A stretch of DNA of 64,000 nucleotides from Bacteroidia bacterium (GCA_038206385.1 JBBRAW010000006.1:2440-66439); one strand, 5' to 3'; positions 21,300 to 51,740 are shown, counted from the first letter of the stretch. The notes: generated by a model from the sequence alone, not told the origin. Translations and numbers: made by a program.

Positions 21300-21311
21300 T
21301 GCATCAATTTA

Positions 21312-32990: not shown

Positions 32991-34180
32991 GCTACTTTAC
33001 GTTTCTCCATTGTTACAGAAAGAATTTTTTCTTCTTGCTGATGCGAAATCCTTTCCGTTAATTGTTCAACAACTGAAATATCTTCGCCTTCAAATGCCAT
33101 TGCATATAAACTTGTAATTCTTTTCCACGTATATTTTTCTTTTGCGAAATTCTCTAAATTATTTGCGATTTCATTTCGCTTTGTACTACTTAGATTTTTA
33201 ATAATTTCCACTAAATCATCAACATTTCCAAAATAAATTGCATTGTGTCCTGTGGTTTCTCTGTTATATGATATGTCAAATGCTACTACAGGCAATCCTA
33301 GTCCCATAGCCTCTACTAAAGAAGGGTTTGTACCTCCAGCACTATGCCCATGCACATAAAGTGCAGCATTCGATCTTAAAACATTTAAAGCGTGTTGATC
33401 ATAGATGGGATCCAAAAGATAAATGTTAGAAAAATCATTATATTTTTTCCTTAATTGTATTCCATAAGTTCCATGATCCCATAAACCAACAACTACAAGA
33501 AGATGATTGGGGTTCTTTGAAAATGCTTCAAGTATTACGTGAACATTGTTTTCAGGTTCTATACGACAAACATTGAAAGCATAAGACTTATCCAAGAAAT
33601 CGTATCGCGCTAATGTGTCAGATGTCTTATCCTGTTTTGTTACATGATCTGATCCATACTCAATTAACCAAGCATCATGTCGATCATATTCCGCTTCAAC
33701 ATATTCTCTAATAATTCTATTATCGGTTATAACAGTATCTGCTAATCGTACAGCAATTTTTTCAGACAATCTTAATATCTTTTTTGCTATCCAATTCCAC
33801 TTCGGTCTCTTCCATTCTTGTCCATCAATATTTATAAGAATAGGTTTTTTCGTAAACAACTTTACAAAAGGAAGAATTATTGCACCTGAAACACCCAACA
33901 TTAAAAGGACATCACTATTACGTAATGCATGAAAAACTGAACAAATATCATAAATGATACTCTGATAACCATTCGCATTAAATGGCAGATAAACAAGTTT
34001 AGCTCCTTTAAAATATTTTGGTCTTGATGCCTTTTTAGCAAAATATTTATTGCTACAATAAACAGTTATTTCAAAACGATTATTTAATCGATCTACAAGA
34101 TGATGCGTTAATGTTTCAAAGCCACCATATTTTGCCGGTAAGCCAGTTGTGCCTATAATTGCAACGCGTTTAGTGCGCAT
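32987..34180 (-). CDS. family GT4 (GT1-fold) glycosyltransferase with DUF1972-type N-terminus
   Basis: 'VAIIGTTGLPAKYGGFET' N-terminus and a C-terminal Glycos_transf_1 EX7E region. Confidence 0.85.
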   Translation of the reverse strand: MRTKRVAIIGTTGLPAKYGGFETLTHHLVDRLNNRFEITVYCSNKYFAKKASRPKYFKGAKLVYLPFNANGYQSIIYDICSVFHALRNSDVLLMLGVSGAIILPFVKLFTKKPILINIDGQEWKRPKWNWIAKKILRLSEKIAVRLADTVITDNRIIREYVEAEYDRHDAWLIEYGSDHVTKQDKTSDTLARYDFLDKSYAFNVCRIEPENNVHVILEAFSKNPNHLLVVVGLWDHGTYGIQLRKKYNDFSNIYLLDPIYDQHALNVLRSNAALYVHGHSAGGTNPSLVEAMGLGLPVVAFDISYNRETTGHNAIYFGNVDDLVEIIKNLSSTKRNEIANNLENFAKEKYTWKRITSLYAMAFEGEDISVVEQLTERISHQQEEKILSVTMEKRKVA

Positions 34181-34459: not shown

Positions 34460-35548
34460 TTATAAAAGTCCTATCACTGAGTTTACTTGATTTTGTAAAT
34501 TTTGAGAGGTAAATTTTTTAGAAGTCAACTTTGCTCCTGAAGATAAATTTACACATTTGAGTTTGTCAGTTGCCAAACTTTCAAGTACCTGATCTAGTTC
34601 CTTTATCTTTCGCACATCAACAGTAAATCCATTAAGACCTGATTTAACAAACTCCGATGGTCCGCCAACAGGAGGAGCAATTACTGGAACGCCATAACAC
34701 ATCGCCTCCAATAAGGTTAATCCAAATGTTTCTACACACCACCCTGGATTTGTAAGATTAACTACAAGACTTGCTCGTTGATAAAAAGGGTGAAGATTTT
34801 TTTGAACAGGATAAATAAATAGATTAGCTGATAAATCTTCCTCGACAAAAAATTGTTGAATATCTAAATCCGATGCATTTAACACCAATTCAAATTTCAA
34901 TGTGGGATGACGTTGTGCTAATGAAATAAATTCATGAACTCCTTTGTACGTCTTTAAAGAACAAACCATCAAAACACAAAATTTATCGTGTTGTAAATGA
35001 TGATAACTGAACCCTTCCGATTGCTCCACAAATTCATCGGGAAGTGCATTGTAAATTACATGTGACTTAACATTTTTTAAATGCTCTACTTCTAATAAAT
35101 AATTGGAAACATAAAGAACATTATTCGCTGTCGAAGAGGCTACATACCGTAGAAACATTTTTAACAGTTTTGGCTGAATATAACTTTCATGCAAATGATA
35201 AATAATTTTTTTACCTGTAATTTTTCCAGCTAGTGCTGCTCCAAATGGTAACAATGTATTTACATAAATAATTACATCTTCCTTTCGATACTTTAATATT
35301 TGAAAAAACAAAATAATTTGACTTATGATAAACAATATTAATCTGCCATAAACATTAGAAACAAATTGATAAGGAAAATATACTACTTTAGATTTAATTC
35401 TACTTAAAAATCCTTCTCGATTTTTAGAGGTATGCAATATAATTTCGTAACCGGCCTTTTGTAATCCTTCTAATGCTTGGATAAAAACAAGAGGGCTACC
35501 ACTAAAGTCGTTTAGTAAATGAACTGCAACAATTTTTTTCATTTTCAT
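34460..35548 (-). CDS. family GT4 glycosyltransferase
   Basis: GT-B fold with a C-terminal 'ETFGLTLLEAMCYGVPVIA' Glycos_transf_1 motif. Confidence 0.8.
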   Translation of the reverse strand: MKMKKIVAVHLLNDFSGSPLVFIQALEGLQKAGYEIILHTSKNREGFLSRIKSKVVYFPYQFVSNVYGRLILFIISQIILFFQILKYRKEDVIIYVNTLLPFGAALAGKITGKKIIYHLHESYIQPKLLKMFLRYVASSTANNVLYVSNYLLEVEHLKNVKSHVIYNALPDEFVEQSEGFSYHHLQHDKFCVLMVCSLKTYKGVHEFISLAQRHPTLKFELVLNASDLDIQQFFVEEDLSANLFIYPVQKNLHPFYQRASLVVNLTNPGWCVETFGLTLLEAMCYGVPVIAPPVGGPSEFVKSGLNGFTVDVRKIKELDQVLESLATDKLKCVNLSSGAKLTSKKFTSQNLQNQVNSVIGLL

Positions 35549-35559
35549 TTAAAGAATGA

Positions 35560-36819
35560 TTAACTAGCTTTTGGTAGTAATGACTCGTACACATCTCTTA
35601 GACGTTCTCCTCTCAAATTCCAATCAAATTTTGTTTTAAATGTTCTTATTGCTCCTTCCGACAATTCATTGTATCGAACTTTATCATTATGTAATAATGT
35701 TAATGCTGCTGAAAAATGGGTGATGCTTGAATCATATCTTCCATATGGAACAGTAATGCCACACGATGAATCGATAAATTCACCAGGACCTTCATTTCTA
35801 AAACATAATACCGGAACACCAAACGATAAAGCTTCAGCAATGACCATCCCAGCTCCTTCATGAGATGGAAATAGAAATACTTTAGACTTCAAATACAATT
35901 TTTGAAAATCACTTCTGTGAAGCCACTCAATAAATTGTACTGCATCGCCTAACTCTAATTCATTTACTAACCTTTGCAAGTATGGTTTACTTGGTCCGTC
36001 GCCAACTAATATTAATTTAGCTTTCAACTTATCTGAAATAGGAAGTTGATGATAAAATCGAGCGAAGGATTTTATAGTAATATCAAATCCCTTTAATGGT
36101 ACGAATCTTCCTGCTGAAAGAACAATAAATCTGTCATCTAAATTAGAAGAATTAAAAAGTGAGTTATGCGCTTCGGAACTAACTGAAGGCATGTGAATAG
36201 TTTGCTTTTGTGTAAGATGAAGCATCTTGGCAACTGTAGAATTCATTGTTAAAACAGCATCGGCATGTTGAACAGTTTGTCGAAGGAAAGGATCAACATT
36301 CCAAAAATATTTTTTTATCATCCATTTAATTTGTTCAACAATATATGTTTTCCTTCCATAAACATGCAAAACATAATCTTTAGGAATTCGAGGGTGATGT
36401 CCAATAGGTCCCCACACAAAAGGTTTTTTTAAAACCCATAACCTTGATGGAGTCCAATCATTATGGAAATTTAAATTATGAACAATATCAAAGTGGAGAT
36501 TTTTTCTTTTTATATAATACGGTAAAAAATATTGCCATAAATAATAATAGGGCAATGCACCTCTGCTTCCTTTTTTCCAAAAGCGCATCCAATACGGTAA
36601 ATCAAAATAAATAAATTGAATATTTTTATAATATTCAGAAGGATGATCGATCATATATCTTTCGATATCTGTTCGTGTATTTTTTCTTACAACTGCAATG
36701 ATCTTATTGAATCGTGCAATCTGATTTATAAAATTCCATCCCATGCCATCTTCCGAACCATGATAGGGATTTACTGCATACGCACTCAATAAAATAGTAT
36801 TTACTTTTGTTGTATTCAT
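35560..36819 (-). CDS. family GT4 glycosyltransferase
   Basis: C-terminal 'HEGAGMVIAEALSFGVPVLC' Glycos_transf_1 motif. Confidence 0.8.
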   Translation of the reverse strand: MNTTKVNTILLSAYAVNPYHGSEDGMGWNFINQIARFNKIIAVVRKNTRTDIERYMIDHPSEYYKNIQFIYFDLPYWMRFWKKGSRGALPYYYLWQYFLPYYIKRKNLHFDIVHNLNFHNDWTPSRLWVLKKPFVWGPIGHHPRIPKDYVLHVYGRKTYIVEQIKWMIKKYFWNVDPFLRQTVQHADAVLTMNSTVAKMLHLTQKQTIHMPSVSSEAHNSLFNSSNLDDRFIVLSAGRFVPLKGFDITIKSFARFYHQLPISDKLKAKLILVGDGPSKPYLQRLVNELELGDAVQFIEWLHRSDFQKLYLKSKVFLFPSHEGAGMVIAEALSFGVPVLCFRNEGPGEFIDSSCGITVPYGRYDSSITHFSAALTLLHNDKVRYNELSEGAIRTFKTKFDWNLRGERLRDVYESLLPKAS

Positions 36820-36837: not shown

Positions 36838-37569
36838 CTATCCTGCCATTTTCATTGATGAAATCATTTCTTCTGTTGCATTTCTATTTCGAATAACTTT
36901 AGCTGGAACGCCACCAATTATCGAATTCGGTTGCATATCTTTCGTTACAACTGCACCTGCAGCTATTACACAATTTTCTCCAATAGTAACTCCATCTAGA
37001 ATCGTCACCTTTGCACCTATCCAACAGTTACGACTTATATAAATTCCTTTTCTACTTACAGGTTGAAGTCGTATCAATTCATCATTCACATTAAATGAAT
37101 GGTTTTCTGGATGACAACTAAAATAGGGTCCGATGATACAATCATCATCGATTGTTAATCCTCCTGCTCCACCTAAATGTGCAAATTCGCCAATACCAAC
37201 GTGCTTACCAATTCTAATAAATTCTCCTAGTTCATTGAAAGAGAATGAAACTTTCAAATAAGAATTACCACCAATCCATGAGTGATCGTCAATAAAAAAA
37301 CCTTGCTTACCATTGGCAATAATTTGAACATTGTCACCGATTTGTATGGCTTTACCATAATGAAAAAACTTTTTCCCAATAATATTTACATTGTTCCCAA
37401 GGAAAATAAATTTATTCGGACTAAAAATATTAATCATCTTTAACCCACGTAAAAGAGCCATTGTTTTCGACCATAGAAAAGAATACATCATTGCATCATC
37501 CACATTTTTATCAAGTGTGAATGATGGATTTTTTTTTCTCCCAAGGTATGTTACAAGGCACTTTAACAT
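36838..37569 (-). CDS. hexapeptide-repeat (left-handed beta-helix) acyl/acetyltransferase, WcaF/CysE-like
   Basis: Repeated [LIV]-G-x-x-x-x hexapeptides ('IGDNVQIIANGK', 'IGAKVTILDGVTIGENCVIAAGAVV'). The track start at 37668 overlaps the upstream gene, so an internal ATG (37569 or 37491) is more likely. Confidence 0.75.
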   Translation of the reverse strand: MLKCLVTYLGRKKNPSFTLDKNVDDAMMYSFLWSKTMALLRGLKMINIFSPNKFIFLGNNVNIIGKKFFHYGKAIQIGDNVQIIANGKQGFFIDDHSWIGGNSYLKVSFSFNELGEFIRIGKHVGIGEFAHLGGAGGLTIDDDCIIGPYFSCHPENHSFNVNDELIRLQPVSRKGIYISRNCWIGAKVTILDGVTIGENCVIAAGAVVTKDMQPNSIIGGVPAKVIRNRNATEEMISSMKMAG

Positions 37570-37570
37570 A

Positions 37571-38326
37571 TTATATTTTCCAAAATGTCGTTTGACAAAC
37601 AAAGAATGCCATAGGTGAAAATCCAGAAAACTTATGCATTTCTTTTCCTTCCAATAAATTAGCTCCATTCCAATTTACTGGATTATCACTATTATCTAAT
37701 ATTAACCAACCACCTGGTTTAATTTTTTTAAGCGCAGCGCGAATACAATCATTCCGTCGTGTAAAATCATTCATTGAATCAATTAAAACGATGTCAAAAT
37801 ATTCATCATCTAAACGTTTAAGATCAGTGATGGTATCGCTGCCTTGCATAACATTTAGATTGAATCGACTTTCATTGTATTTTTCTGGATTAGAATGGAC
37901 CTTAGAAATAATCATCTGAGCCCATTCGATATTATGTTCGTAAGTAACAAGATTAACTCCTTTATCCAAAAACCATAAAGAGCTATTTCCACCTCCTAAT
38001 TCTAAAACTCTCATACCAGGTCGAACTATACCAGATAAATATTTTATAGCATCTAGAACAATAAAAGGAACAGGATTTTTCATGATTGGAGAAGTACGTG
38101 CTTGCATATACGTCTTCATAATATACGGCAATCGAGAGACGCTATAAAGTGAAGGGAAATTTCCCTCGTAATCCGTAAAACGTAAGCTAGCCTTCAATTT
38201 TTCAATATGACCATCATCACACTCCCACTTTAAAGTTGTGCGTCCCAATAATCTATCGATAACAGGCTTTTCATAACTTGATTGAACAGTGTTTTGATTT
38301 GGTGCTGTAAAATTTTGACGTTTCAT
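37571..38326 (-). CDS. class I SAM-dependent methyltransferase
   Basis: Motif I 'VLELGGGNSSLWF' and an acidic motif 'DIVLIDS'. Confidence 0.75.
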   Translation of the reverse strand: MKRQNFTAPNQNTVQSSYEKPVIDRLLGRTTLKWECDDGHIEKLKASLRFTDYEGNFPSLYSVSRLPYIMKTYMQARTSPIMKNPVPFIVLDAIKYLSGIVRPGMRVLELGGGNSSLWFLDKGVNLVTYEHNIEWAQMIISKVHSNPEKYNESRFNLNVMQGSDTITDLKRLDDEYFDIVLIDSMNDFTRRNDCIRAALKKIKPGGWLILDNSDNPVNWNGANLLEGKEMHKFSGFSPMAFFVCQTTFWKI

Positions 38327-38350: not shown

Positions 38351-39655
38351 TCAAAGTGTTGCCGAAATACATTCTTTCATTACAAGATCGAGTGTATGAT
38401 TAAGATCGGTATTATTAATAACCATATATTGTTGTTTACTTCCTGATTTACTAAGGTCTTCAAACAACTCCTTGTATTCAGCGGTTAGATTTTGAATGTC
38501 AATACTGCTTAATTCACGTTTACGGCTAAGAATAATTTCAGGAGCAGCATACAGAAATACATTCACATTCGGTTTAAAAAGAAAATAATAAAATAAGCGA
38601 AGAAAGCTTTTCGGTAAAACAATATTTGAACGTTTCGAATCAATAATAAAATCAAAATAATATCGATCATACAACACAGTGTAACCTCTTAATGTATATT
38701 TGAAATAAATGTAATATTGTCCGAATAAATAATCTAAATAATAGTATAGAAACCGAATCAGTGAACTAAGTTTATTCGTATTACTTCCTTGTCGTGGTAG
38801 CTGATTTATTGTTCTCATTTCTGCACTCCTTTTTCCATAACGAATGGAACTAAGAATTGGAAGTAATGATGGACGATGACGTAAAACCTTTACGCGTTGT
38901 CGATATTTTATTTGTAAGCTATCGCGAACACTTTCTAATAATGTTGATTTTCCAGCACCATCAACTCCGCTAAACGTTACAACAATTCCACGATTGTGGA
39001 TCATGTCTCGAAATACATCTGTTATGTATCTTAAAAATTTTATTGCGCGAAAAACTTTATGGTTATCTGAATGTTCAAGTATTTTTTGAATTATCTTTTT
39101 TGATTCTCTTTCGGAAGTAACGAATAATTCGTCTAATGTATTTAAATGCAATTTGTACTTGTGACAGATGTAGCCGAAAATTTCACTTCTTTCCTCTTTA
39201 CTTAAAGAGGTATAATACTGAACATAGCGATCAGGTGTATTAGCTTTGTTTATTAGATTAAAAAGTACAATATATTCGTAATTGTGTTTTAATGCAGCAA
39301 CTTTTATATTCTCCTTTGAAATAATAACATGATTTAGGATATCTTTTGCCTCTAGATAAATAATCCCTTTTCTATCGAAACGATGTATAAGATCTACCTC
39401 TAAGTATGTTCCATCCTTAAAAGAAATATTTACAAATGTTACAAATGATTTTTTATAAACATGAACCCATTCAATATTATCTCCAGCGCGAATTAATTTA
39501 AGAAATTTTATTTTTTCGCTTTCCTTAATTAATAAGTCGATGTCAGAGGAAGTTGGTATTTCATCAATAAATTCATGCGTGAATTTTAACAAAGCGTATC
39601 GAAAATCCGAAGCTCCTTTAAAAAAGTAATGCAAAAATTCTTTTCGATGACTCAT
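38351..39655 (-). CDS. two-domain protein: N-terminal minimal-nucleotidyltransferase-like domain and C-terminal P-loop kinase-like domain
   Basis: 'IPTSSDIDLLI' resembles the GS...[SD]DIDL NTase-fold motif. 'VVTFSGVDGAGKSTLLESV' is a Walker A of thymidylate/deoxynucleoside-kinase type. No glycosyltransferase features. Confidence 0.55.
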   Translation of the reverse strand: MSHRKEFLHYFFKGASDFRYALLKFTHEFIDEIPTSSDIDLLIKESEKIKFLKLIRAGDNIEWVHVYKKSFVTFVNISFKDGTYLEVDLIHRFDRKGIIYLEAKDILNHVIISKENIKVAALKHNYEYIVLFNLINKANTPDRYVQYYTSLSKEERSEIFGYICHKYKLHLNTLDELFVTSERESKKIIQKILEHSDNHKVFRAIKFLRYITDVFRDMIHNRGIVVTFSGVDGAGKSTLLESVRDSLQIKYRQRVKVLRHRPSLLPILSSIRYGKRSAEMRTINQLPRQGSNTNKLSSLIRFLYYYLDYLFGQYYIYFKYTLRGYTVLYDRYYFDFIIDSKRSNIVLPKSFLRLFYYFLFKPNVNVFLYAAPEIILSRKRELSSIDIQNLTAEYKELFEDLSKSGSKQQYMVINNTDLNHTLDLVMKECISATL

Positions 39656-41037
39656 ACGTTGGTCGCTGAATTATCAGCAATATGTGTTATGTCTTCAAGA
39701 GCTTCTAGCCACGCATCCATCATCCATTGACTCTGCGTTAGCAATTCAGTTTCATTAATATATTGCCGTAAATAATAACTTACATTAAACAAAAGATACA
39801 AACGATAATTTAATGCTGTATTAATTTTATACTTATGAACGATCTGCTTGATGAGAGGTGTTTGTTGCCATTTTTGTACTGACTTTATTACATCATTATA
39901 TTTTTTTTGATGCTGAAGAATTGTTGATTGAAAAGTGAAGTGGTATAAATCGAACAACATTGGGATTCCGTTTCGAGCTAATTCCCAATCATAAACATAT
40001 AAACGTTGATCATCACAATACATATTCCAAGGAGTGAAGTCGCCATGAGAAACAGAAACTGCGATTTCATCTGTTACAGAAATACTATTGTAAACTTTTG
40101 TAAGTAAATAAATAATTCGCTTTGTCTTGGCCGTATTTAGTCCATTTGAAAATAGCAATTCTTGTTTTAAGAATTCCATGTTGTTGATGATGGTATGCCA
40201 TGCAACACTTTCCATTATCATTTTACGTTCATGACTAATATTATACAATTCTGCCATCACCTTTGCGTGAATTGAGGTAATACGATCTGCCGAAATCACA
40301 ATGCCCGGCTTCACATTACTGATACGCGCATTTCCATTAATCTTCTTCGAGAGTTTCGGTAGACTTAATGTTGTGAAATCATATTTTCCAAGCGCAGTAA
40401 GCATTTCTATTTCGTTTTGTACTAGTGACTTTGAATGTTTTGTTAGTGGGATTTTCACAAAGCCTGAACAGCTTGATTTATCGTGAATTTCCATTACCGT
40501 TTTGCGAGTTGCTCCTCTTGTTCCAGTGAAGAATGATACAGATTCATGTTGCATCACTCCGTTAAGTTGTTTTACTCGTTCTAGTAGATTTTGTTGCAGA
40601 TAAATAACCCCAGAAGCAAGTCGTTGCTCTTGCCCAATTTTCCACGCTAGGTGGCTAAGTTTTTTATAAAACCTTCCCTTCCAAGTTGCTGTATTGTAGA
40701 GTGATAAGTATCCCGCATGTTTATCGTCAGCTAGAAAAAGCCAACGCATCGTACCATCAGGATTATTAATAAAATAAATTTTTATTGTTTCTTCTCCAAT
40801 AGAAAGTCCCGCATAAAGCGCATTTTCAACGTTACCATCGGGATTAAAACCAGAAGTTAAATCGACATAAAACAAAGTCTCATCTTCTTGAAATATTGGT
40901 TCTTGCAATAGTCGAAAATCAATGTTCTGAGCGACCGTTAATCGGTGATAAGGATCAAAAATGGCAAGTGTTTTCTTCTCAGGCGAAAAAATATCACGCA
41001 GCAGAACTAGATCGGAAAGATATATAGGTTTTTGCAT
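39652..41037 (-). CDS. aminoglycoside/choline-kinase-like (APH-fold) phosphotransferase with an unrecognised ~200-aa N-terminal domain
   Basis: Catalytic loop 'SHGDFTPWNM' and 'VYDWE' (H-G-D-x4-N ... D) typical of the APH/ChoK family. The track start at 41073 overlaps the upstream gene by 80 nt, so an internal ATG (41037) is used. Confidence 0.6.
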   Translation of the reverse strand: MQKPIYLSDLVLLRDIFSPEKKTLAIFDPYHRLTVAQNIDFRLLQEPIFQEDETLFYVDLTSGFNPDGNVENALYAGLSIGEETIKIYFINNPDGTMRWLFLADDKHAGYLSLYNTATWKGRFYKKLSHLAWKIGQEQRLASGVIYLQQNLLERVKQLNGVMQHESVSFFTGTRGATRKTVMEIHDKSSCSGFVKIPLTKHSKSLVQNEIEMLTALGKYDFTTLSLPKLSKKINGNARISNVKPGIVISADRITSIHAKVMAELYNISHERKMIMESVAWHTIINNMEFLKQELLFSNGLNTAKTKRIIYLLTKVYNSISVTDEIAVSVSHGDFTPWNMYCDDQRLYVYDWELARNGIPMLFDLYHFTFQSTILQHQKKYNDVIKSVQKWQQTPLIKQIVHKYKINTALNYRLYLLFNVSYYLRQYINETELLTQSQWMMDAWLEALEDITHIADNSATNV

Positions 41038-42313
41038 TGGATTCCGTACTCCGATATATACGTGATGAAACACCTAATGGTTCGATACTAATTGTAATAA
41101 CAATTAAGAGATAAAAAAGAATTCCATAATTTGTTTCACCAAAGATTCCGAACTCTGTTAATGAGTTTATGAGTAATGGAATAAAAATTAATAACGCAGA
41201 CGTTTTTTGTGCTTTATCAGGATGTGTTAAAAGTGCATGTAAGAAAGTACTTAGCTGTGATAGCACTAACAACAATCCTACTAATCCTAGTCCTAATAAT
41301 ACTTGTAAAAAAGTATTATGAGTCATGGCTCCTGAATATGCATTCAGTGATTCAAATTTATCGGCATAATCGATTCGCATATATCCAAAACCAAACCAGG
41401 GTTCACGCGGGAAATTATACGTCAATAAATCTTTCCAAAACGGAATTCTTCCTGTCATACTCATTACCTCTTCTGCATTACTTTGTTTTACAAAAATTTG
41501 ATATCCAAGCAATGGAATTGTGAGTATTAACAAACTTCCTAAGGCGATCTTAAATGCTTTCGATTGTTGTTTATATCCATAAAGTCCAATTACTAAAAGC
41601 ATCGAAATAAAAGAAGAGCGAGATCCAGTTAGAAAGAGTAAATAAATTAATCCTCCAATAATAAATATAGATCGAACGCTATATTTATTATCCTTAAATA
41701 ACATTGGTAACATTACTGCTATTCCTACAACAAGCAACATTCCTAGCTCATTTGGATTAATAATATATCCACCTAATCGTGATACTTCGCCACCATGTGT
41801 TAGTCGATAATATTGATCTGGGTCTAAAACTTTACCTATTGCAAACCATGCTGCAATTAATGCTATTGCTGGTGCAATAATTTTATGCAATTCGAAATAC
41901 CCTCCTGGATACAAGGATTTACATGCTAATACTAATCGCATAAAAAAGAATGCAAATACAAAGCTTTCAATATCCATAAATATTTGTAGCAACGAATATT
42001 TAAAAGAGCTTGTCCATAATAAAGATGCAATACCCAAAACTAAATATCCAAAATATAACCAGAGTGGCAAAGGGTATTTAATTTTATAAAGTGGCTTATC
42101 ACTTCGCATTTGTTGAATAATACTTGCTGTAATAACAGTAATTGTTAATGTCGTTCGCAAACCTGCTTTTAATGCTTGTGTTATTATTAAATCTTCTGAC
42201 AAAACGAAGTAACTAATGATTCTTAAAAGAATTATCGAAACAAGAAATACTCGAAATCCAGGAGCAGGATTCTTATAGATCGCTTTAGCGTTCATAAAGG
42301 AGTTATGCTGCAT
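40994..42313 (-). CDS. O-antigen ligase/polymerase family membrane protein (Wzy-like)
   Basis: About 11 TM helices with a large loop carrying R/H residues, as in Wzy_C. Confidence 0.8.
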   Translation of the reverse strand: MQHNSFMNAKAIYKNPAPGFRVFLVSIILLRIISYFVLSEDLIITQALKAGLRTTLTITVITASIIQQMRSDKPLYKIKYPLPLWLYFGYLVLGIASLLWTSSFKYSLLQIFMDIESFVFAFFFMRLVLACKSLYPGGYFELHKIIAPAIALIAAWFAIGKVLDPDQYYRLTHGGEVSRLGGYIINPNELGMLLVVGIAVMLPMLFKDNKYSVRSIFIIGGLIYLLFLTGSRSSFISMLLVIGLYGYKQQSKAFKIALGSLLILTIPLLGYQIFVKQSNAEEVMSMTGRIPFWKDLLTYNFPREPWFGFGYMRIDYADKFESLNAYSGAMTHNTFLQVLLGLGLVGLLLVLSQLSTFLHALLTHPDKAQKTSALLIFIPLLINSLTEFGIFGETNYGILFYLLIVITISIEPLGVSSRIYRSTESNAKTYISFRSSSAA

Positions 42314-43424
42314 AAACGTCTACTAATTTTTTTGCAATACTTAACCAATTAAACTCATCCTCCACCATCTTAAGTGCCGAATTTCCCATTAGCAGATGTT
42401 CGCCCTTCTCAAACGATTGATCGAAATTTAATAATGCATGTGCAATTGTATTCGAATCATTTTTTTTCAGATGTATTCCGCATTTACGTTTTTCAACAAG
42501 TTCTCCAACATTTGTTGCAGTACTTACTAAAAGTGGACGTTTTAATGCTGCCGCTTCTAATACTGCTGTTGGTGATCCTTCTGAACGTGATGTATGACAA
42601 AATAAATCCATATTTGCAATTCGATTTAATTTATCTTTTCCATAACGAGCGCCCATAAAAGTTACATGATCCGATAAGTTTAACGTTTTCACTTGCTCTT
42701 CTAAAATAGGACGATCAGGTCCATCGCCTATCAACCATAATTCCCCCTTCCCACCCTTTTTGTGGTACGCAGCAAAACCATCAATTAATAAATCCAGTCC
42801 TTTGTAATAAATATCTAATCGACCACAGAAACCAATTACAGGCGTATGTTTACGATGCATCTTATGGTATTCAAAATTTAGCTCTTCAAAATTTTGACCG
42901 TTAGGAATAATAACTTTATTGTTAAGTGTTACAATTTTCGCGATGTGTTCATATTCACTCTGTCCTAAAAATTGAACTTTTTTTGCTTCACGCAGAATTG
43001 TTTTTTCATAACGTTGAATATATAATCTCTTTAGCCATTTACTTTTATCTAAAGCAATCGCATTGAATGCGCCATGAGGAGTGTAAACATAACTCATCTT
43101 CATATCCTTTAAAAATCTTGTGATCTTGTAAAAATCAGCGATGAACGCGCCATGAATATGAAATACCGTTGATCGAGGCAAACGTGAAACTGAATACAAT
43201 AATTTAGGATCTAAGTCGCGGTAGAAAGGTTGTGCACGAAATAATTTAGTAGGAAAATCACGGGGATAAACTTCTGAAGTCACATTAGATGTTATTCCCC
43301 ATATTTCAACATCGAGACCTAATTCATGTAAATGTGAAGCATGATTATGTGCAACTTTATTCACCCCGTTCATGCGATTGGGATTTGCCTTTCCTAAAAC
43401 TAAATGAATAATTTTTTGCGACAT
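42303..43424 (-). CDS. family GT4 glycosyltransferase
   Basis: C-terminal 'SRSEGSPTAVLEAAALKRPLLVS' Glycos_transf_1 motif. Confidence 0.85.
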   Translation of the reverse strand: MSQKIIHLVLGKANPNRMNGVNKVAHNHASHLHELGLDVEIWGITSNVTSEVYPRDFPTKLFRAQPFYRDLDPKLLYSVSRLPRSTVFHIHGAFIADFYKITRFLKDMKMSYVYTPHGAFNAIALDKSKWLKRLYIQRYEKTILREAKKVQFLGQSEYEHIAKIVTLNNKVIIPNGQNFEELNFEYHKMHRKHTPVIGFCGRLDIYYKGLDLLIDGFAAYHKKGGKGELWLIGDGPDRPILEEQVKTLNLSDHVTFMGARYGKDKLNRIANMDLFCHTSRSEGSPTAVLEAAALKRPLLVSTATNVGELVEKRKCGIHLKKNDSNTIAHALLNFDQSFEKGEHLLMGNSALKMVEDEFNWLSIAKKLVDVYAA

Positions 43425-43500: not shown

Positions 43501-44763
43501 TTAAAGATGTTTTAATTCTTTACGAAGACTAAACAAATAAATAAATAAGGTGATAAGTTGAGTGATCATTAGTCCAGCAACAATTCCATAAATTCCAAAT
43601 GATTTAATAATTGGATAAGCACACAATACGCTAAAAACAGAACTCGCTATGAACGAAATAAATATCAGTCTTGTTTTTTCTAATGTTCTTATGGCATATC
43701 TCAGAGGATATCCTAAAAATACGATTACATACAAACCACAAAAACAAACAAGCAGATGACGGTATTCAATGAAATCATTTCCATAACATGCATGAATAAT
43801 TTCGCTACTAAAAATAGCAATTAATCCAAGCATTGTTAATGTGATGCATCCCATTTGCAATGTAAATTTCCAGAGATAACGAAACATCATATCCTTACCA
43901 CCAATTCGTTGAAAGTTGGCTGCTCTTGCAGGAATAATATTTTCCATTGCAAGAAACAAAACATGTGTAACTCCAACAATATTTTGTGCCATTCGTGTAG
44001 CACCTACTGCTTGTGGACCAAGTATTGCTCCAGCGGCAATGATAAATAAGTTTCCAGAAAACCATTGCAATAGTGCAGTTGCTGTTAGCCATTTACTAAA
44101 ATCCCAATGCTCTAAAAAAGTTTCTTTAATGTGTTGCAAATTAAATCGTAGTTCTTTAAGCGACCATAACGCAACGAGCGATGCGTATAAAAAGAAAACA
44201 GCCGTTAATAATAATACAAATTGTGCATCCATTGCTCTAACAAAATGAATACAAAATGCACTAACCAATACTCCGCCATAAGCAATTGTATCAATAATTA
44301 TAGAGATGTGTGGCTTACCAGTTACAAAAAAATATCGTCGAAAGAAATCTTGCAACAAGAAAGAAAATACTGCTAATGGAAATGCAAGGATTATACTTTC
44401 TACTTTCCAAGTCTTTAAAACATAACCCATAAATATTACAGTAATAAAAGACAAGATGCCCATCAATGCTGCAAATAATATTTGTTTAATTACTAAGGCT
44501 TGTAAATAATTTTCCTGTTGCTCTGGCGATTTTTTTCCACTCAGCGTTTGCATTGGTGCTATGATGAAAGGTTGATTAATGCTACTAGCAATTAAAACAC
44601 CGATCCAAGCAATGCTATAAATACCAAAACCATTTATTCCAAGATATCGTGCTAACACAATGCTCGATAAAAAACTAAAGCCACTAACAATAGCTTGATC
44701 CGCATAAACCAGTGCTGTACTGTTACGCCTTAAAAGTTTAGGTATTGCAATGGAAATATTCAT
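43501..44763 (-). CDS. MOP-superfamily oligosaccharide flippase (Wzx)
   Basis: About 12 TM helices with the polysaccharide-biosynthesis-protein family layout. Confidence 0.8.
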   Translation of the reverse strand: MNISIAIPKLLRRNSTALVYADQAIVSGFSFLSSIVLARYLGINGFGIYSIAWIGVLIASSINQPFIIAPMQTLSGKKSPEQQENYLQALVIKQILFAALMGILSFITVIFMGYVLKTWKVESIILAFPLAVFSFLLQDFFRRYFFVTGKPHISIIIDTIAYGGVLVSAFCIHFVRAMDAQFVLLLTAVFFLYASLVALWSLKELRFNLQHIKETFLEHWDFSKWLTATALLQWFSGNLFIIAAGAILGPQAVGATRMAQNIVGVTHVLFLAMENIIPARAANFQRIGGKDMMFRYLWKFTLQMGCITLTMLGLIAIFSSEIIHACYGNDFIEYRHLLVCFCGLYVIVFLGYPLRYAIRTLEKTRLIFISFIASSVFSVLCAYPIIKSFGIYGIVAGLMITQLITLFIYLFSLRKELKHL

Positions 44764-44769: not shown

Positions 44770-47073
44770 TTACCAAACAAATAAATTGGTTAATTGTGGT
44801 GTCGTTCTTTTTGATGACGATATTTTAAATTTACTTGGACGAATATATCCTGTATGATTACGTTTTTCTTTCATCGCATTTAAAACATAATGAACCTCTT
44901 TTAAACGATATTCTTCTTTAATCATTTCAGCGTTTGCGATTAATTCATCACGACCTGTTTCTGCTCGAACAACATATAAATTTAAATCACTCCATTTCAT
45001 AAATGGAATTGCATCAGTATATTCACCTACTTCAGGAGTGTCAATAATTACAGCATCATATTGATGACGCAATTCATCAATGATTTCTTTTGTGCGATGT
45101 GTTGCAACTAAATGTCCTAATGGAGTAGTTTCATTTCCACAAGTGATTAGGTCTAGATTTGGAATCGATGTAATCTGAATCACATCTTGTAGCGATCGAT
45201 GTTGAATATACACTTCACTAATTCCTGCCGATCCTCTAACATCAAACAGTTGACCAAGGCAAGGTTTATAGGTGTTCAAATCAATCATGATAACCTTTTT
45301 ATCCATCGCAGCTAATGTGCGCGCTAGATTTGTTGCAACAAACGATTTACCTTCCCCCTTACGAGTGCTTGTAACCGTAATTACCATCGGTTGATTCGAT
45401 GATTGATTCATCATGATGCGCGTACTTAATGCAGTGAACGCTTTATAAGCAGGCTCGTCTTTGCGAAGTTTTTCGATATGCCCAATTACTGGAATACTAC
45501 TATTTGGTGAAAGATCTTCAGGAGCATTTACAGATGGTTTCATGTAGTGACGTAAATACGCGATTACAATTCCTATCACTAAACCTAAAAATAATGAAAC
45601 TCCCCAAACAACATTTGAATGTGGAGAAACTACATCTAACGGTAATGTTGCAACTTCTAAAATTTTATTAAACGAAACATTTACTTGACGCGTAATCATC
45701 GCTTCTGTTCGTTTCTCAATTAAAAAGTTATAAATTTTTTCATACAAAAAATAATTTCCTGTCAACTCTTCCAAAGTACTTTCTTTTTCGGGAACTCCTT
45801 TAAACGTTGCGCGTTCATCATCAATTGCAACATACAACTCGTCTTGTTTCGTCAATAATTTACGACGTGTATTATTTATACTTTCTACAAGAAATGCCTT
45901 TTGTTGTACAATCTCAGCATCTACATTTTTTACACGATCATTATCTGCCGTATACTTACGAAGTAATTCATCGTGCTCACGTAATTTACCGTTGAGATGT
46001 GTTACTGCTTCAGTAAATAATGGATCTTGAACAGAACCATATTCAGGACCAGAAAAACGAATTTCCTTATTCTTACGCAGATAATCACTCATATTTTCGA
46101 GTGAGGCCAACTGCATATTCAAATCTACCTTCTGAATTTCTAACTGTCCTAATGTTTTATAAGTAGCTTCAGTTGCCTGAGGAATATTTACAATATCATT
46201 TTTTATACGATAATTTTTTATTGCATCACGAGCCTGCTCTAATTCAAGGCTAACAATTGATAATTGCTGATTAATAAAGTCAACTGTGTTCCCAGCAAGA
46301 TCTTTTTTTTCTTCAATACTTTGATCAATGTAAGATTGGGCAATTGCATTCACTAATTTAACAGCTTTTTCTGCGATTGGATGTGAATAATAAACCTTGA
46401 TTACGTTCACATCCTTATCAACTGCTTTTACAAGATAATCTTTTGTTAAATATTTATTGGTAAGTGCTGTGCTTGAGTAAACGGTAAATCTCCACGGAGC
46501 CGCTAAATATTGTGTTGTTTTATATTTAATGATTGGGTCATTTTTATGAAGCGTAATGCAAACACCACGATCACAAACTTCTTTACCAAATTCACCTTGC
46601 TTTTCTATCTCTGTACCAACAACATTGTATGTAATTTTAAATTTATTTCCTGATAAATAACGGAATTCATAATCACGTTTGTAGAATGTACTATCTGAAA
46701 TTTTAAAATCTACTTTGAAGGGTGTATCACCATAAATTTCTTCCGTTTTTAGTTCACCTTCATGAAAATATTCTACATAAAAATCTAAACGCTCTAATGC
46801 CTTCTGGAAAAAATTCCTAGACTTTAAAACCTCCACTTCTGTTTGAACTTTATTATTGCTTTTAAAAACATCGAAGTCCCGGTAGAGATTGGAGCTCGCC
46901 ATTCCTTGTTGTGGATCTTCAATTTTTAAGGTGGCACTTGCCTGATACTCCGGTGTAGCCATGTACAAATATCGTGTAGCAACAATGCTCGCGATCATGA
47001 TACAAATAAGAACCAAATACCAACGTTTTTTCAACGGGTATAAAATGTGTGAGAGACTTCCTGGTGAGCGCAT
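44770..47073 (-). CDS. Wzc-type polysaccharide co-polymerase with C-terminal BY-kinase domain
   Basis: N-terminal Wzz-like periplasmic domain between two TM helices, a long coiled coil, then Walker A 'TSTRKGEGKS' and Walker B 'IIDTP'. Confidence 0.85.
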   Translation of the reverse strand: MRSPGSLSHILYPLKKRWYLVLICIMIASIVATRYLYMATPEYQASATLKIEDPQQGMASSNLYRDFDVFKSNNKVQTEVEVLKSRNFFQKALERLDFYVEYFHEGELKTEEIYGDTPFKVDFKISDSTFYKRDYEFRYLSGNKFKITYNVVGTEIEKQGEFGKEVCDRGVCITLHKNDPIIKYKTTQYLAAPWRFTVYSSTALTNKYLTKDYLVKAVDKDVNVIKVYYSHPIAEKAVKLVNAIAQSYIDQSIEEKKDLAGNTVDFINQQLSIVSLELEQARDAIKNYRIKNDIVNIPQATEATYKTLGQLEIQKVDLNMQLASLENMSDYLRKNKEIRFSGPEYGSVQDPLFTEAVTHLNGKLREHDELLRKYTADNDRVKNVDAEIVQQKAFLVESINNTRRKLLTKQDELYVAIDDERATFKGVPEKESTLEELTGNYFLYEKIYNFLIEKRTEAMITRQVNVSFNKILEVATLPLDVVSPHSNVVWGVSLFLGLVIGIVIAYLRHYMKPSVNAPEDLSPNSSIPVIGHIEKLRKDEPAYKAFTALSTRIMMNQSSNQPMVITVTSTRKGEGKSFVATNLARTLAAMDKKVIMIDLNTYKPCLGQLFDVRGSAGISEVYIQHRSLQDVIQITSIPNLDLITCGNETTPLGHLVATHRTKEIIDELRHQYDAVIIDTPEVGEYTDAIPFMKWSDLNLYVVRAETGRDELIANAEMIKEEYRLKEVHYVLNAMKEKRNHTGYIRPSKFKISSSKRTTPQLTNLFVW

Positions 47074-47075: not shown

Positions 47076-47831
47076 TTATTTCTTTGAAACGCTGTACACT
47101 AATGCTATTGCTGTAATTAAGCTGGCAAGCGGAATCAGCTTAGCAGAAAATCGATCGAATTTTTTTCCTCCTGATGGTGGAATGTAAACCACATCATTTG
47201 GATAAACTCTTGTATCACTTAAGGAAGTATTTGTCATGTCAACTACAAATGATTCTTTTCCTCTTATTATTTTAACGCTTGTTGTTTTTGCATAATCTGT
47301 AAATCCAGATGCTTTTGCAATAAGATCTATTAATCGAATATTATCGGCGCTATAAATATAAATTCCTGCTCGTTGAACTTCACCAATAATTGTTACTTCG
47401 TTATTTAAGATTCTTAAATTTATAATTGGATCAACAATAAATTTCCCGTAAGCTTTTTCAAGAACTTTTTTTGCTTGCGTTAAAGTAAGTCCTTCCAATT
47501 TTGTAATCCCGATTTGTGGAAGGTTCACTTCTCCTTTGGAATCAATCATCAGCCACTTACCCGTTTCTTCTTGTACATTATATATATTATGTACCGATCC
47601 AACGCTCAAATCTTCGTGTCCCCAAATGCTAATCGACATTTTATCGTTAGGCTGTAATACCTTTTCAACAGTTTCATCAACACTGCTAGAGGTAGTTCCT
47701 TGCTTTGGTTGATTGTTTGTTGCTGTATGCGAATACAAAACATATTTATTACACGAACTAATGATGCACATGCTAAATAGCAGCAATAGCATCGTTCTGA
47801 TTATGGTTAAAAGTTTCAATGTGGTTAACAT
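47076..47831 (-). CDS. Wza-family outer-membrane polysaccharide export lipoprotein
   Basis: Lipobox 'ISSC', a Poly_export motif ('PNDKMSISIWGHEDL') and an SLBB domain. Confidence 0.85.
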   Translation of the reverse strand: MLTTLKLLTIIRTMLLLLFSMCIISSCNKYVLYSHTATNNQPKQGTTSSSVDETVEKVLQPNDKMSISIWGHEDLSVGSVHNIYNVQEETGKWLMIDSKGEVNLPQIGITKLEGLTLTQAKKVLEKAYGKFIVDPIINLRILNNEVTIIGEVQRAGIYIYSADNIRLIDLIAKASGFTDYAKTTSVKIIRGKESFVVDMTNTSLSDTRVYPNDVVYIPPSGGKKFDRFSAKLIPLASLITAIALVYSVSKK

Positions 47832-48085: not shown

Positions 48086-48469
48086 TTATAATAACTGTCC
48101 CACTATTTTTCTATGAATACCTTCTTTAATAAGATTAACATTAAAGTTCACAAGTATTGCCAGCTTCATGTTTGTTAATTTGAGATAAGTCAACACCGTT
48201 TTATGATGAACTTTTTCAAGGTGTTCCACCGATTTAATTTCAACTATTAATTTGTTTCCCATAATTATATCAGCTCTAAATCCAATATCAAGAACTGTGT
48301 CTTCATAATTCGCTACAATACCTTGTTGCCTTGTAAACGCAATACTTCGCTTATCTAATTCGTAAGCAAAAGCTGCTTCATAAACACTTTCAAGTAAGCC
48401 TGGCCCAAGTGTAGTATGTATTTTATAGCAAATATCAACGGCGATAGTAGCCAATTCGTTTTCTGTCAT
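48086..48469 (-). CDS. GxxExxY family protein (PD-(D/E)XK-like)
   Basis: 'GPGLLESVYEAAFAYEL' (the GxxExxY motif) and a downstream '..DIIMGNKLIVEIK' core. Start taken at the internal ATG 'MTENELA'. Confidence 0.8.
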   Translation of the reverse strand: MTENELATIAVDICYKIHTTLGPGLLESVYEAAFAYELDKRSIAFTRQQGIVANYEDTVLDIGFRADIIMGNKLIVEIKSVEHLEKVHHKTVLTYLKLTNMKLAILVNFNVNLIKEGIHRKIVGQLL

Positions 48470-48499
48470 AATTAATTTTAAGTTTACAAATAAAGCAAA

Positions 48500-48745
48500 T
48501 AAAAACACCTTGTGTCTTTGTGGGATGTATTTTCACATATTCAGCAGATACGTTTTAAAGGTATTTGACGAATGTCCATTCTGTTCCAAAAAAAAAGAAC
48601 TTTGTGGACTTTGTGTCTTTGTGAGATGCATTTTTAATTTTGTAGAATATATGTTTTACAAAGTGTTGATGAACCTGTAATCTGTTCCAAAAAACCTTTG
48701 TTGACTTTGTGTCTTTGTGAGATGCGTTTTTAATTTTGTAGTATC
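48500..48745. repeat. about three degenerate direct tandem repeats of ~92-96 bp
   Basis: Cores at 48508-48527, 48600-48628 and 48696-48724 ('CTTTGT[GT]GACTTTGTGTCTTTGTGAGATGC[AG]TTTTTAATTTTGTAG'), each followed by '...CTGTTCCAAAAAA'. The repeats contain TAATTTTG (-7-like) elements on the + strand. Confidence 0.6.
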
Positions 48746-48927
48746 GCAAAACTTAAAAGAGATATGCCAATTAATTAGGCTAAACATACTTTAAAAATTA
48801 TTTTAAAGTCTAACTCAATGGGAACTCTAAAACACTTACAAAAACACCTCGAACAATAAAACCGGTTAATTCATCTTCAACTAACTCAATTGGTTTATAT
48901 TTTATTTTATCTTTAAAAGCGTGTCAT

Positions 48928-51442: not shown

Positions 51443-51740
51443 TTTTATTTTTAATAATATAATTAATTTTCTTTTCGGCAACTTGCATAGCCTTTAAAGC
51501 TACTTCTTCGTCTCTAACTTCATAAACCAATTTGTCACTAAAAAATGATATAAGTAATTCGTTCTCGTCTTTTCCAAAAAATTTGGCAATCCGTTTTACT
51601 TGATCTTTTGTTGGCATTCGTTCGTTGCGTTCGATTTTACTTAACAAGGCTTGGTCAATTTCAATTACTGCTGCAACTTGTCTAAGTAATAGAGAATTCT
51701 GTTCTCTCAATTCTCTAATTATTTCTCCTATGCTTTTCAA
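51432..51740 (-). CDS. XRE-family HTH controller (C) protein of the R-M system
   Basis: 102 aa, HTH 'LRQVAAVIEIDQALLSKIERNERMPTKDQVKRIA'. It is the first gene of the C-M-R operon, with a TTG start at the track boundary. Confidence 0.7.
   Translation of the reverse strand: MKSIGEIIRELREQNSLLLRQVAAVIEIDQALLSKIERNERMPTKDQVKRIAKFFGKDENELLISFFSDKLVYEVRDEEVALKAMQVAEKKINYIIKNKNGK

Follow-up and report, generated by a model that had tools for sequence, protein, structure and literature searches.

Enzymes of the choline-kinase/aminoglycoside phosphotransferase (APH) fold phosphorylate hydroxyl groups of small molecules and sugars. Enzymes of the nucleotidyltransferase (NTase) fold attack the α-phosphate of a nucleotide or of a nucleoside diphosphate (NDP)-X donor and move nucleoside monophosphate (NMP) or phospho-X to a hydroxyl or phosphate; NTase-fold enzymes of the aminoglycoside nucleotidyltransferase (ANT), LicD/FKRP and PsmN types carry out such transfers onto hydroxyl or phosphate acceptors. 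Within the Lic system, LicC belongs to the NTP_transferase/NTP_transf_3 class. LicD falls in the Pol-beta/NTase fold class and is a transferase, not an activating enzyme (Kuchta 2009, PMC2794190), and together with fukutin and MNN4 it exemplifies the NTase-fold phospho-X transferases that act on glycans (PMC2794190). In pseudomycoidin biosynthesis, the kinase PsmK is followed by an ‘uncharacterised nucleotidyltransferase’, PsmN, which adds a hexose to the phosphorylated C-terminal serine of the peptide, apparently on the phosphate (PMC6993621). A thymidylate kinase (TMPK)-like gene and a PF14907 gene also flank the phosphoenolpyruvate (PEP) mutase gene in one family of phosphonate clusters (PMC8942020). 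Here we analyze two adjacent genes, A and B, that combine these fold classes within a Wzx/Wzy-type exopolysaccharide (EPS) cluster. They occupy positions 38351–41037 of a 64-kb stretch of DNA from a Bacteroidia bacterium (GCA_038206385.1 JBBRAW010000006.1:2440-66439), hereafter called the window. Neither the domain combination nor the module was found described in the literature searched, in keeping with an earlier reading of the window, hereafter the original prediction, which had held that the combination is not a described pathway.

A and B as the Halves of One Enzyme

Gene A (38351–39655, minus strand) is an open reading frame (ORF) of 434 codons for an NTase-like domain followed by a TMPK-fold kinase. 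Gene B (39652–41037, minus strand; 461 residues) encodes an N-terminal domain and a choline-kinase/APH-fold kinase, and the two genes together make up the span 38351–41037 exactly. For B, the ATG at 41037 matches the N-termini of homologues better than the GTG located 36 nt upstream at 41073. An ATGA (39652–39655, minus strand), as read from the sequence, holds both the stop of B and the start of A; it indicates translational coupling and corresponds to the point of in-frame B-A fusion in other lineages. Because of this overlap, and because the Wzy gene runs with its 3′ end into the start of B, the genes form a tight operon. The G+C content is approximately 31–34% throughout, with no compositional break at A or B.

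The relationship between the two proteins becomes apparent in their homologues. When 1.84 billion cluster representatives were searched with a profile of A's N-terminal half, 550 proteins were obtained; among the best 150, the domain mostly begins at approximately residue 390–485 of a protein of 815–915 residues. In 88 of 148 retrieved sequences, each the representative of a 50%-identity cluster, hidden Markov model (HMM) searches revealed full-length B followed by full-length A in one chain, the fused proteins being 820–915 residues long. The order was checked directly in P0242 (895 residues), in which B (34% identity) precedes A, and P0114 was also shown directly to be a B-A fusion. At the genomic level, B and A lie in a single stop-free ORF in 36 of 86 loci, including those of Hymenobacter glaciei JCM 17225, Flavisolibacter, Candidatus Pollutiaquabacter and a metagenome-assembled genome of Chitinophaga. 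All of these fused loci are at most 47% identical to A of the window, and the clade of the window (at least 48%) has the split arrangement. Fusions are also found in cultured organisms, namely Fulvivirga sediminis and several Hymenobacter species, among them Hymenobacter canadensis, whose fused gene lies at 10001–12457 of locus L088 in CP114767; such proteins bear the names ‘hypothetical protein’, ‘Thymidylate kinase’ or ‘nucleoside/nucleotide kinase family protein’.

The catalytic residues of the three centers are each present in 88 of the 88 fusion representatives, and all three activities are therefore maintained by selection. On the basis of these comparisons, we regard B and A as the two halves of one conserved three-center enzyme, which is split here and is a single protein in most lineages. 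Since they form one polypeptide in most lineages, the two are functionally coupled. The enzyme is predicted to be soluble and cytoplasmic, with its centers in the order N-terminal domain plus APH-fold kinase, NTase-fold domain and TMPK-fold kinase; no membrane segment is predicted in A or B, whose maximum 19-residue hydropathy values are 1.15 and 0.87, respectively.

Homologues number 517 for A and 251 for B, nearly all of them from uncultured Bacteroidia. Their database labels include ‘hypothetical’ and ‘nucleoside/nucleotide kinase family protein’ and, in JGI and UniRef, ‘thymidylate kinase’, ‘thiamine kinase-like enzyme’ and ‘phosphotransferase’, and a look-up of exact-sequence clusters returned no name for A or B of the window. 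An anti-phage defense system was considered and rejected: PADLOC gave only P-loop matches of approximately 25 residues for A (VakA and PifA, E ≥ 4e-4) and none for B.

The original prediction had placed two co-directional genes devoid of glycosyltransferase (GT) features between the Wzy polymerase and the methyl- and acetyltransferase genes. The ORFs and their Pfam-annotated neighbors agree with this description, and neither protein gives a GT match. The motifs that it had quoted are also where they should be, SSDIDLL at residues 36–42 of A (39530–39550), GVDGAGKST at residues 230–238 of A (38942–38968), and the H-G-D-x4-N/D-W-E core in B as HGDFTPWN (residues 331–338, 40024–40047) and DWE (residues 350–352, 39982–39990). 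Judging by the family alignments, in which these residues are invariant, the motifs are not chance strings. The profile searches and structure predictions that had been proposed for both proteins have now been run, and they reveal kinase folds with intact catalytic residues, as detailed below.

The Kinase and N-Terminal Domain of Protein B

The AlphaFold2 (AF2) model of B has a predicted local distance difference test (pLDDT) value of 91.9 and a predicted template modeling (pTM) score of 0.89. When it was compared with the PDB using Foldseek, the best match was the choline kinase LicA (4r7b, E 3.7e-7, ~13% identity). Further matches, at 10–17% identity, comprise APH(2″), APH(3′), Plasmodium choline kinase, methylthioribose (MTR) kinase, glucosamine kinase and amicoumacin kinase, of which APH(2″), MTR kinase and the eukaryotic choline kinases score about as well as LicA (E ~1e-6 to 1e-7). 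Sequence profiles are less telling. Pfam APH (PF01636) reaches 23.4 bits for a gathering threshold of 23.2 and covers only the catalytic loop (residues 327–364). Among PDB sequences, a profile of B failed to pick up LicA at E up to 1; its single, marginal match was to the catalytic loop of an APH-like ‘putative acyl-CoA dehydrogenase’.

All hallmarks of the fold are nevertheless present in B, namely the ATP-binding Lys, the helix-C Glu, the HxDxxxxN loop and the DxE metal site. The catalytic elements are encoded at 39982–40530 (minus strand) and consist of the Gly-rich loop FTGTRGATRK (residues 170–179), the ATP-binding K195, E209, HGDFTPWN and the metal-binding DWE. K195, E209, H331, D333, N338, D350 and E352 are invariant among 84 homologues, and the loop is conserved as FTGTRGxTRK. 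The modeled structure and these residues identify B as a member of the choline-kinase/APH-fold group of small-molecule kinases, and as a marginal member of Pfam APH.

The kinase core begins at about residue 145–165. It is preceded by a domain of residues 1 to ~145 (40603–41037, minus strand), β-rich according to the secondary structure of the AF2 model, for which no consistent Pfam family was found among nine sequences at E up to 10, an isolated PAS_3 match (E 0.005) in one of them being set apart. The domain of no known family that had been announced in front of the kinase is thus real, but it is shorter than the ~200 residues proposed, at about 145–160. It carries the conserved motifs NNPDGTxRW (residues 91–99, 40741–40767) and LSLYN (residues 111–115, 40693–40707), both on the minus strand, in which R98, W99, Y114 and N115 are invariant in the family alignment.

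The Two Domains of Protein A

The C-terminal half of A (residues 221–434; 38354–38995, minus strand) is a TMPK-fold P-loop kinase. The AF2 model of A has a pLDDT of 88 and a pTM of 0.82, and Foldseek matched this half to dTMP kinases in the PDB, with E values of ~1e-6, TM(target) of 0.6–0.7 and 15–23% identity; a search of the viral library BFVD again returned dTMP kinases. Both motifs of the fold, GxDGxGK(S/T)T and DR(Y/H/F), are found in A, as GVDGAGKST and as the invariant D330-R331-Y332 within YDRYYFD (38651–38671). An HMM alignment to the TMPKs 3hjn and 2plr spans the P-loop, the DRY block and the strand and helix that follow it.

The resemblance to thymidylate kinases stops at the acceptor site. 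Pfam Thymidylate_kin (PF02223) gives A 26.9 bits over residues 229–401, for a gathering threshold of 27 that some relatives pass (P0010, for example, with 38.8 bits), and the dTMP kinase equivalog TIGR00041 gives 26.1 bits for a cutoff of 83.25. In place of the TMP-binding helices, A has ~57 residues (262–318) that do not align to TMPKs, within a remodeled acceptor region delimited as residues 262–320. Where TMPKs have the Glu of their ‘REP’ motif, A has an invariant Arg, R261, in the RHRPS segment (38867–38881). The segment after DRY reads YFDFIIDSKRSN, with D335, D339 and R342 invariant at positions where TMPKs presumably have the Ser and Gln that contact the base. As the fold and its motifs are present while the curated cutoffs are missed and the dTMP site is absent, this half is a TMPK-fold kinase, and a very divergent one, that stands outside the true thymidylate kinases. 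Kinases of the TMPK type, whose exact P-loop and DRY signature is found in A, phosphorylate a phosphate group, converting NMP to NDP, and the invariant arginines of the remodeled region would fit an anionic acceptor.

These data bear on the simplest explanation of the locus, that a housekeeping thymidylate kinase and a resistance or thiamine-kinase-type gene came to lie in it by chance. The automatic names agree with this explanation, as do the TMPK fold and P-loop signature. It is effectively refuted, and we give it next to no probability: the TIGR00041 score is far below its cutoff, the TMP-binding region (residues 262–320) is unaligned, and the kinase domain is never free-standing, being always carried on the 220-residue N-terminal domain and usually fused to B as well. 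In addition, the genes are strictly syntenic within the EPS cluster across the phylum (see below).

The N-terminal half of A (residues 1 to ~220; 38996–39655, minus strand) comprises a putative Pol-beta-type NTase-fold core and a helical subdomain. The marks of a Pol-beta NTase are an [DE]x[DE] pair carried by a single strand, another carboxylate contributed by a strand farther on and, following strand 1, a conserved residue that is mostly part of G[GS]. In A, an invariant K..DxD..D pattern is found on successive strands of the AF2 model, formed by K24 in LLKF (39581–39592), D38 and D40 in SSDIDLL, and D88 (39392–39394). In an alignment of 75 sequences, these four residues are invariant along with N136, the Walker A residues G230–T238, R259, R261 and P262, and farther on R301, D330-R331-Y332, D335, D339, R342 and R378.

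Matches of this half to families are all below threshold. PF14907 (NTP_transf_5) was matched by 4 of 12 N-terminal domains of A (best E 0.0024, 18 bits for a gathering threshold of 31.2) and weakly by the fused protein P0276, and it is the only NTase family with repeated, though weak, matches; DUF7277 was matched by 5 of the 12 and Polbeta by one. None of the 12 matched PF04991 (LicD/fukutin) at E up to 10, and what A has in common with that family may be no more than the broad class of fold. No match of A or B to the NTP_transferase models PF00483 and PF12804 was found at E up to 0.01, nor any of the N-terminal domain of A at E up to 10. A profile of this domain gave no match to PDB sequences at E up to 10, and hence none to ANT. 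The N-terminal half of A belongs to no curated family. Because of the K..DxD..D pattern on successive strands and the repeated weak PF14907 and Polbeta matches, it is likely to have a Pol-beta-type NTase fold, nearest to the PF14907/ANT-like kind. The view of A as an NTase-like domain joined to a P-loop kinase is therefore confirmed by Foldseek for its kinase half; the NTase half has weak PF14907/Pol-beta matches, and no structural match was found for it by Foldseek in the PDB or BFVD.

The Exopolysaccharide Cluster

According to Pfam annotation and to synteny across 86 loci, the conserved cluster extends from 26719 to 47831, with all its genes on the minus strand. In the direction of transcription, it starts with Wza (47076–47831), Wzc (44770–47073), a Wzx-like protein (43501–44763), a GT4 (42303–43424) and the Wzy-type polymerase (40994–42313; Pfam Wzy_C, E 7e-16), which is directly upstream of B/A in 67 of the 86 loci. 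After A come a SAM methyltransferase (Methyltransf_24; 37571–38326), a hexapeptide O-acetyltransferase (AcT; 36838–37668), the latter present in 73 of 86 loci, a GT (35560–36819), a GT4 (34460–35548) and a GT with a DUF1972 N-terminus (32987–34180), so that the cluster holds four GT-B glycosyltransferases. A member of the WecA/MraY family of polyprenyl-phosphate sugar-phosphate transferases (26719–27807; PF00953, E 7e-42) is likely to be the initiating enzyme.

The order Wza-Wzc-Wzx-GT4-Wzy-(B)A-AcT-GT-GT4-GT(DUF1972) is kept down to 39% identity to A in the 86 loci, and it recurs in annotated contigs and in the genomes of Hymenobacter canadensis and Fulvivirga sediminis. In a scan of one genome per species, relatives of A were found in 425 genomes, all with Bacteroidota names barring a few evident mislabels, in groups that include Saprospiraceae, Chitinophagales, Cytophagales, Flavobacteriales and Hymenobacter. 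Wzx/Wzy clusters do not usually keep their gene order so well, which suggests that a single polymer is widely shared. As judged from gene content, the module is a fixed component of the cluster, placed among tailoring and GT genes, and no other enzyme there is predicted to be able to attach a non-sugar group.

The cluster nevertheless varies. The methyltransferase is clade-specific, being restricted to loci with at least 49% identity to A, and one subgroup is devoid of AcT and of one GT and retains the B-A fusion. Nine Saprospiraceae loci (L045, L046, L049, L056, L058, L059, L061, L064 and L066), which apart from this are complete or almost so, have A right after Wzy and lack B within 10 kb. 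In one further locus, L063, B has been relocated and its homologue lies upstream of Wza (1839–3305).

Several observations concern the surroundings of these genes. AcT as listed has 276 residues and overlaps the methyltransferase by ~100 nt; as its homologues have 242–245 residues, translation probably begins at Met34 (37569), one base past the methyltransferase stop codon. Two genes separate the DUF1972 GT from the WecA-like gene in the window, one for a CHU_C/NHL protein (30045–32990, minus strand; 981 residues, with NHL/Ig repeats and a C-terminal CHU_C domain of type IX secretion) and one for a PorP/SprF-OmpA fusion protein (27811–30048, minus strand). They are syntenic with the cluster in 26–28 loci of the window clade, and in Fulvivirga the WecA-like gene directly follows the DUF1972 GT (L089, 16845–17909). 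This pair hints at a link between the EPS and a surface protein secreted by the type IX secretion system. Some contigs with the cluster (L016, L022 and L044) were deposited as ‘uncultured Bifidobacterium sp.’ or ‘Gammaproteobacteria bacterium’, probably as a result of binning or labeling errors.

On the other side of Wza, between it and an NTP_transferase+LbH gene (52500–53501), lies a restriction-modification (R-M) block (48086–51481, minus strand), which encodes a BsuBI/PstI-type restriction endonuclease (48928–49893), an Eco57I/N6-adenine methylase (49856–51481) and a 140-residue ORF (48086–48508). Since the related contigs L003 and L004 (1–2600) read NTP_transferase-dUTPase-Wza and have no R-M genes, the block looks like an insertion beside the EPS cluster. 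Elsewhere in the window, 8639–12397 on the plus strand encodes a 1252-residue CheB methylesterase/CheR methyltransferase/PAS/histidine kinase fusion that is unrelated to A and B.

Regulatory genes are found near the cluster in several organisms. In Hymenobacter and Fulvivirga, a single-domain response regulator is encoded upstream of Wza, and a sigma-54-activator response regulator and a PAS hybrid histidine kinase come right after the last cluster gene (L088, 17581–22136; L089, 17909–22059). In the window, rpoN (16–1194), a PAS hybrid kinase (3074–4522) and a sigma-54 activator (4631–6049) lie ~21 kb away, and a TPR-HisKA_3 kinase and LuxR-type regulator pair (20652–23186) resembles the pair upstream of the locus in L005 (1–1288).

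Might the module itself be regulatory, making or modifying a nucleotide signal, or phosphorylating or nucleotidylating Wzy, Wzc or a GT and thereby controlling polymerization? Among the enzymes with an NTase fold are synthases of alarmones and cyclic nucleotides as well as AMPylators of proteins (PMC2794190). That breadth of the NTase fold, the occurrence of protein kinases in the eukaryotic-like kinase (ELK) fold, the place of the module beside Wzy and the two-component and sigma-54 regulators that accompany the cluster are all compatible with such a role. We consider it very improbable, however: the nearest structures to B are small-molecule kinases, not protein kinases, a position between Wzy and the AcT and GT genes is typical of tailoring enzymes, and the module carries no fused receiver, sensor or effector domain.

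Partner Genes and the LicA/LicC Analogy

By analogy with LicA and LicC, the original prediction had suggested that the pair might activate a phosphorylated non-sugar substituent and attach it to the repeat unit, and it had proposed to look for a LicD-like or phosphotransferase partner. No LicC, LicD, LicB-type transporter, TagD/TagF, Stealth, sulfotransferase or PEP mutase gene is present in the 64-kb window, whose sole gene of NTP_transferase type, the one at 52500–53501, is unrelated to A and B. All-against-all clustering of the ORFs within 10 kb on either side of A in the 86 loci yielded no further conserved family, so no partner of the LicC, LicD, TagF, Stealth or sulfotransferase type travels with the module. 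The hoped-for partner, or any other transferase partner outside the GTs, is thus missing from the window and from the conserved surroundings of A. What had been named as evidence that would overturn the idea was not found either: the alignments show conserved catalytic residues, and neither protein is strongly homologous to any characterized anomeric nucleotidyltransferase or sugar kinase.

The analogy thus survives in part. Its kinase element agrees with LicA being the top structure for B, and its LicC element fails, given that no NTP_transferase/NTP_transf_3 match was obtained. In its full form, a LicA/LicC-type pair would activate a choline-, ethanolamine- or glycerol-like alcohol, to be attached by a LicD-type transferase encoded elsewhere. 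LicA at the head of the structural matches of B, the conserved catalytic residues and the location in a polysaccharide locus would all be expected from such a pair. We nonetheless judge it improbable. The NTase-like domain of A is outside the LicC class, no LicD (PF04991), LicB-type transporter or LicC is found in the window or conserved across the 86 loci, and the likeness of B to LicA, at ~13% identity, is no better than that to APH or MTR kinase. Moreover, the invariant TMPK-like domain would have no role, and some lineages keep A and dispense with B; the absence of B from several Saprospiraceae loci makes an obligatory LicA-then-LicC relay doubtful.

Proposed Function

The reading that we prefer, although tentatively, is that B-A is a tailoring enzyme, self-contained and dependent on ATP/NTP, which places a substituent linked through phosphate, of phosphodiester type, on the repeat unit of the polysaccharide. 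Established here are the gene structure, two of the three folds, the invariant catalytic residues, the fusion, the synteny and the lack of partner genes; the acceptor, the substituent, the order of the steps and the role of each domain are inferred from fold classes. The enzyme would act before flipping by Wzx, on the cytoplasmic side, where the repeat unit is linked to undecaprenyl diphosphate. The APH-fold kinase would first make a phosphomonoester, either on a hydroxyl of a repeat-unit sugar or on the incoming substituent. The TMPK-like domain would then apply NMP-kinase-type chemistry to a phosphate-bearing acceptor, energizing it by conversion of the phosphate to a diphosphate, unless it serves to recycle the NMP released in the third step. 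In that step, the NTase-fold domain would form the final linkage by phosphoryl or nucleotidyl transfer. A more specific version, which we consider unlikely though worth stating, is that B-A treats a non-nucleoside substituent like a nucleoside, X → X-P → X-PP, with polymerase-like transfer of X-P to a sugar hydroxyl, or that it nucleotidylates a phosphorylated sugar directly.

Several points weigh against a tailoring role. Phosphate in the polysaccharide is itself putative. Because nine Saprospiraceae loci have no B, a strict three-step relay cannot hold everywhere, except if those genomes encode B at another site or the product of B is available as a common metabolite. LicD and FKRP need an NDP-activated donor provided by a Rossmann-type cytidylyltransferase, and no such enzyme is linked to the locus. 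We also know of no precedent for a TMPK-fold domain that acts on a glycan or a glycan-linked phosphate. Lastly, the synthesis of a soluble donor for one of the four GTs would explain the data nearly as well.

For such donor synthesis, the chief alternative, B would be an anomeric or other sugar kinase, similar to NahK, AmgK or MTR kinase, and the NTase-like domain of A would make an NDP-sugar or another nucleotide-activated donor. The TMPK-like domain would supply the nucleotide or 3′-phosphorylate the donor, following the logic of 3′-phosphoadenosine 5′-phosphosulfate (PAPS), coenzyme A (CoA) or Campylobacter O-methyl phosphoramidate (MeOPN) synthesis, and one of the four GTs would use the product. 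The structural neighbors of B do include sugar kinases (MTR kinase and glucosamine kinase), the kinase-NTase-kinase order of the fusion matches sequential pathways, and the loci devoid of B are easily explained, more so than by tailoring, if the phosphorylated intermediate is a normal metabolite. The cluster also has four GTs, no dedicated non-GT transferase and no genes for NDP-sugar synthesis, and Fkp of Bacteroides, a fused kinase and pyrophosphorylase that feeds surface glycans, is a precedent. To our knowledge, however, every characterized sugar-1-phosphate nucleotidyltransferase has the Rossmann-like NTP_transferase fold and none the Pol-beta fold; as A and B have no match to the NTP_transferase families, an unprecedented Pol-beta-fold sugar-phosphate nucleotidyltransferase would be needed. 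Salvage of free sugars is unexpected for the core EPS of free-living soil and freshwater bacteria, and no transferase that uses a 3′-phospho-donor, whether sulfotransferase-like or MeOPN-transferase-like, occurs in any locus. We therefore regard both the activation of a donor by B and A and the accessory role of the TMPK-like domain in it as conceivable but rather unlikely.

Should the more specific version of the tailoring function given above be correct, the module would represent a new biochemical route of glycan phospho-decoration, in which a phosphodiester-linked group is added with no enzyme of the LicC, LicD or TagF type, and it would provide the first assigned role in polysaccharide synthesis for a TMPK-fold domain and for a PF14907-like domain. 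The module is present in at least 425 species-level Bacteroidota genomes, in a cluster of well-kept gene order, which suggests that abundant bacteria of soil, freshwater and wastewater have in common a surface polymer of defined chemistry. Knowing its substrates would allow functions to be assigned to a TMPK-fold domain that now bears the name thymidylate kinase in error, to a PF14907-like NTase domain, from a family with almost no biochemistry, and to what is a new branch of the APH/choline kinases. The fusions in cultured, sequenced Hymenobacter and Fulvivirga make the module testable by genetic and chemical means. Meanwhile, the labels ‘thymidylate kinase’ and ‘phosphotransferase’ on A and B genes should not be taken to mean a function in nucleotide metabolism or in resistance to antibiotics.

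Comparison with Known Systems

With the LicA/LicC/LicD systems of Haemophilus and Streptococcus pneumoniae, the module has in common an APH/choline-kinase-fold kinase encoded with glycan genes and, in the N-terminal half of A, a signature of the DxD..D type like that of LicD. It differs from them by having no Rossmann cytidylyltransferase, no LicB and no PF04991 match, and by the fusion of a TMPK-fold kinase to the NTase-like domain, the parts usually forming one polypeptide. B itself is 13–16% identical to LicA and has an extra N-terminal domain of ~150 residues.

The PsmK/PsmN pair of the pseudomycoidin pathway also combines a kinase with an NTase-fold enzyme that is ANT-like and has a catalytic DxD. 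The two act sequentially on the same site of a polymer, which thereby gains a decoration linked through phosphate, and we take PsmN to be a member of PF14907. In that case the substrate is a peptide Ser, the kinase is HPr-kinase-like and not APH- or TMPK-like, and the two are separate proteins in a cluster for a peptide made by the ribosome and modified after translation; moreover, the matches of A to PF14907 are below threshold.

The aminoglycoside-modifying APH and ANT enzymes represent the two fold classes of B and of the N-terminal half of A, and they act on hydroxyls of amino-sugar oligosaccharides. They are, however, free-standing resistance enzymes, unlinked to polysaccharide clusters, and identity is ~13%. 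As for Tmk (PF02223/TIGR00041), A shares its fold, a P-loop G-x-D-G-x-G-K-S-T with the TMPK-typical Asp, and an alignable DRY motif and C-terminal block, but it is 15–23% identical, has the TMP-binding helices replaced and is never free-standing.

In PAPS synthase, in CoA synthase (phosphopantetheine adenylyltransferase and dephospho-CoA kinase, PPAT + DPCK) and in Cj1418/Cj1416/Cj1415 of Campylobacter, an NTase is coupled, in many cases by fusion, to a P-loop kinase of NMP-kinase fold, sometimes with a first kinase ahead. The domain order is that of the B-A fusion. The NTases of these pathways have other folds (ATP sulfurylase, HIGH-motif and Rossmann), and their kinases phosphorylate a ribose 3′-OH by means of a catalytic Asp after strand 2. 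In contrast, A has RHRP in place of this Asp, and no matching acceptor transferase is present in the locus.

Finally, kinases of the ELK superfamily that phosphorylate a sugar in a glycan linked to lipid or protein, at a site that an NTase-fold enzyme (fukutin/FKRP) or a methyltransferase (WbdD) goes on to elaborate, are represented by WbdD, a kinase and methyltransferase that caps the E. coli O9a antigen, by WaaP/KdkA and by mammalian POMK with fukutin/FKRP. WbdD works in ABC-transporter-dependent pathways, and fukutin and FKRP need CDP-ribitol from a separate enzyme. The window clade resembles the WbdD arrangement in having a methyltransferase directly after A, but this gene is absent from most loci, and neither WbdD nor WaaP is among the top 50 Foldseek matches of B. 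Capping by a WbdD-like kinase and methyltransferase was set aside, the methyltransferase being confined to the window clade and B being closer to small-molecule kinases than to WbdD or WaaP. The module is related in kind to the glycan-tailoring kinases and NTase-fold transferases; no description of domains combined and fused in this way, with a set position in an EPS cluster found throughout the phylum, was found in the literature searched.

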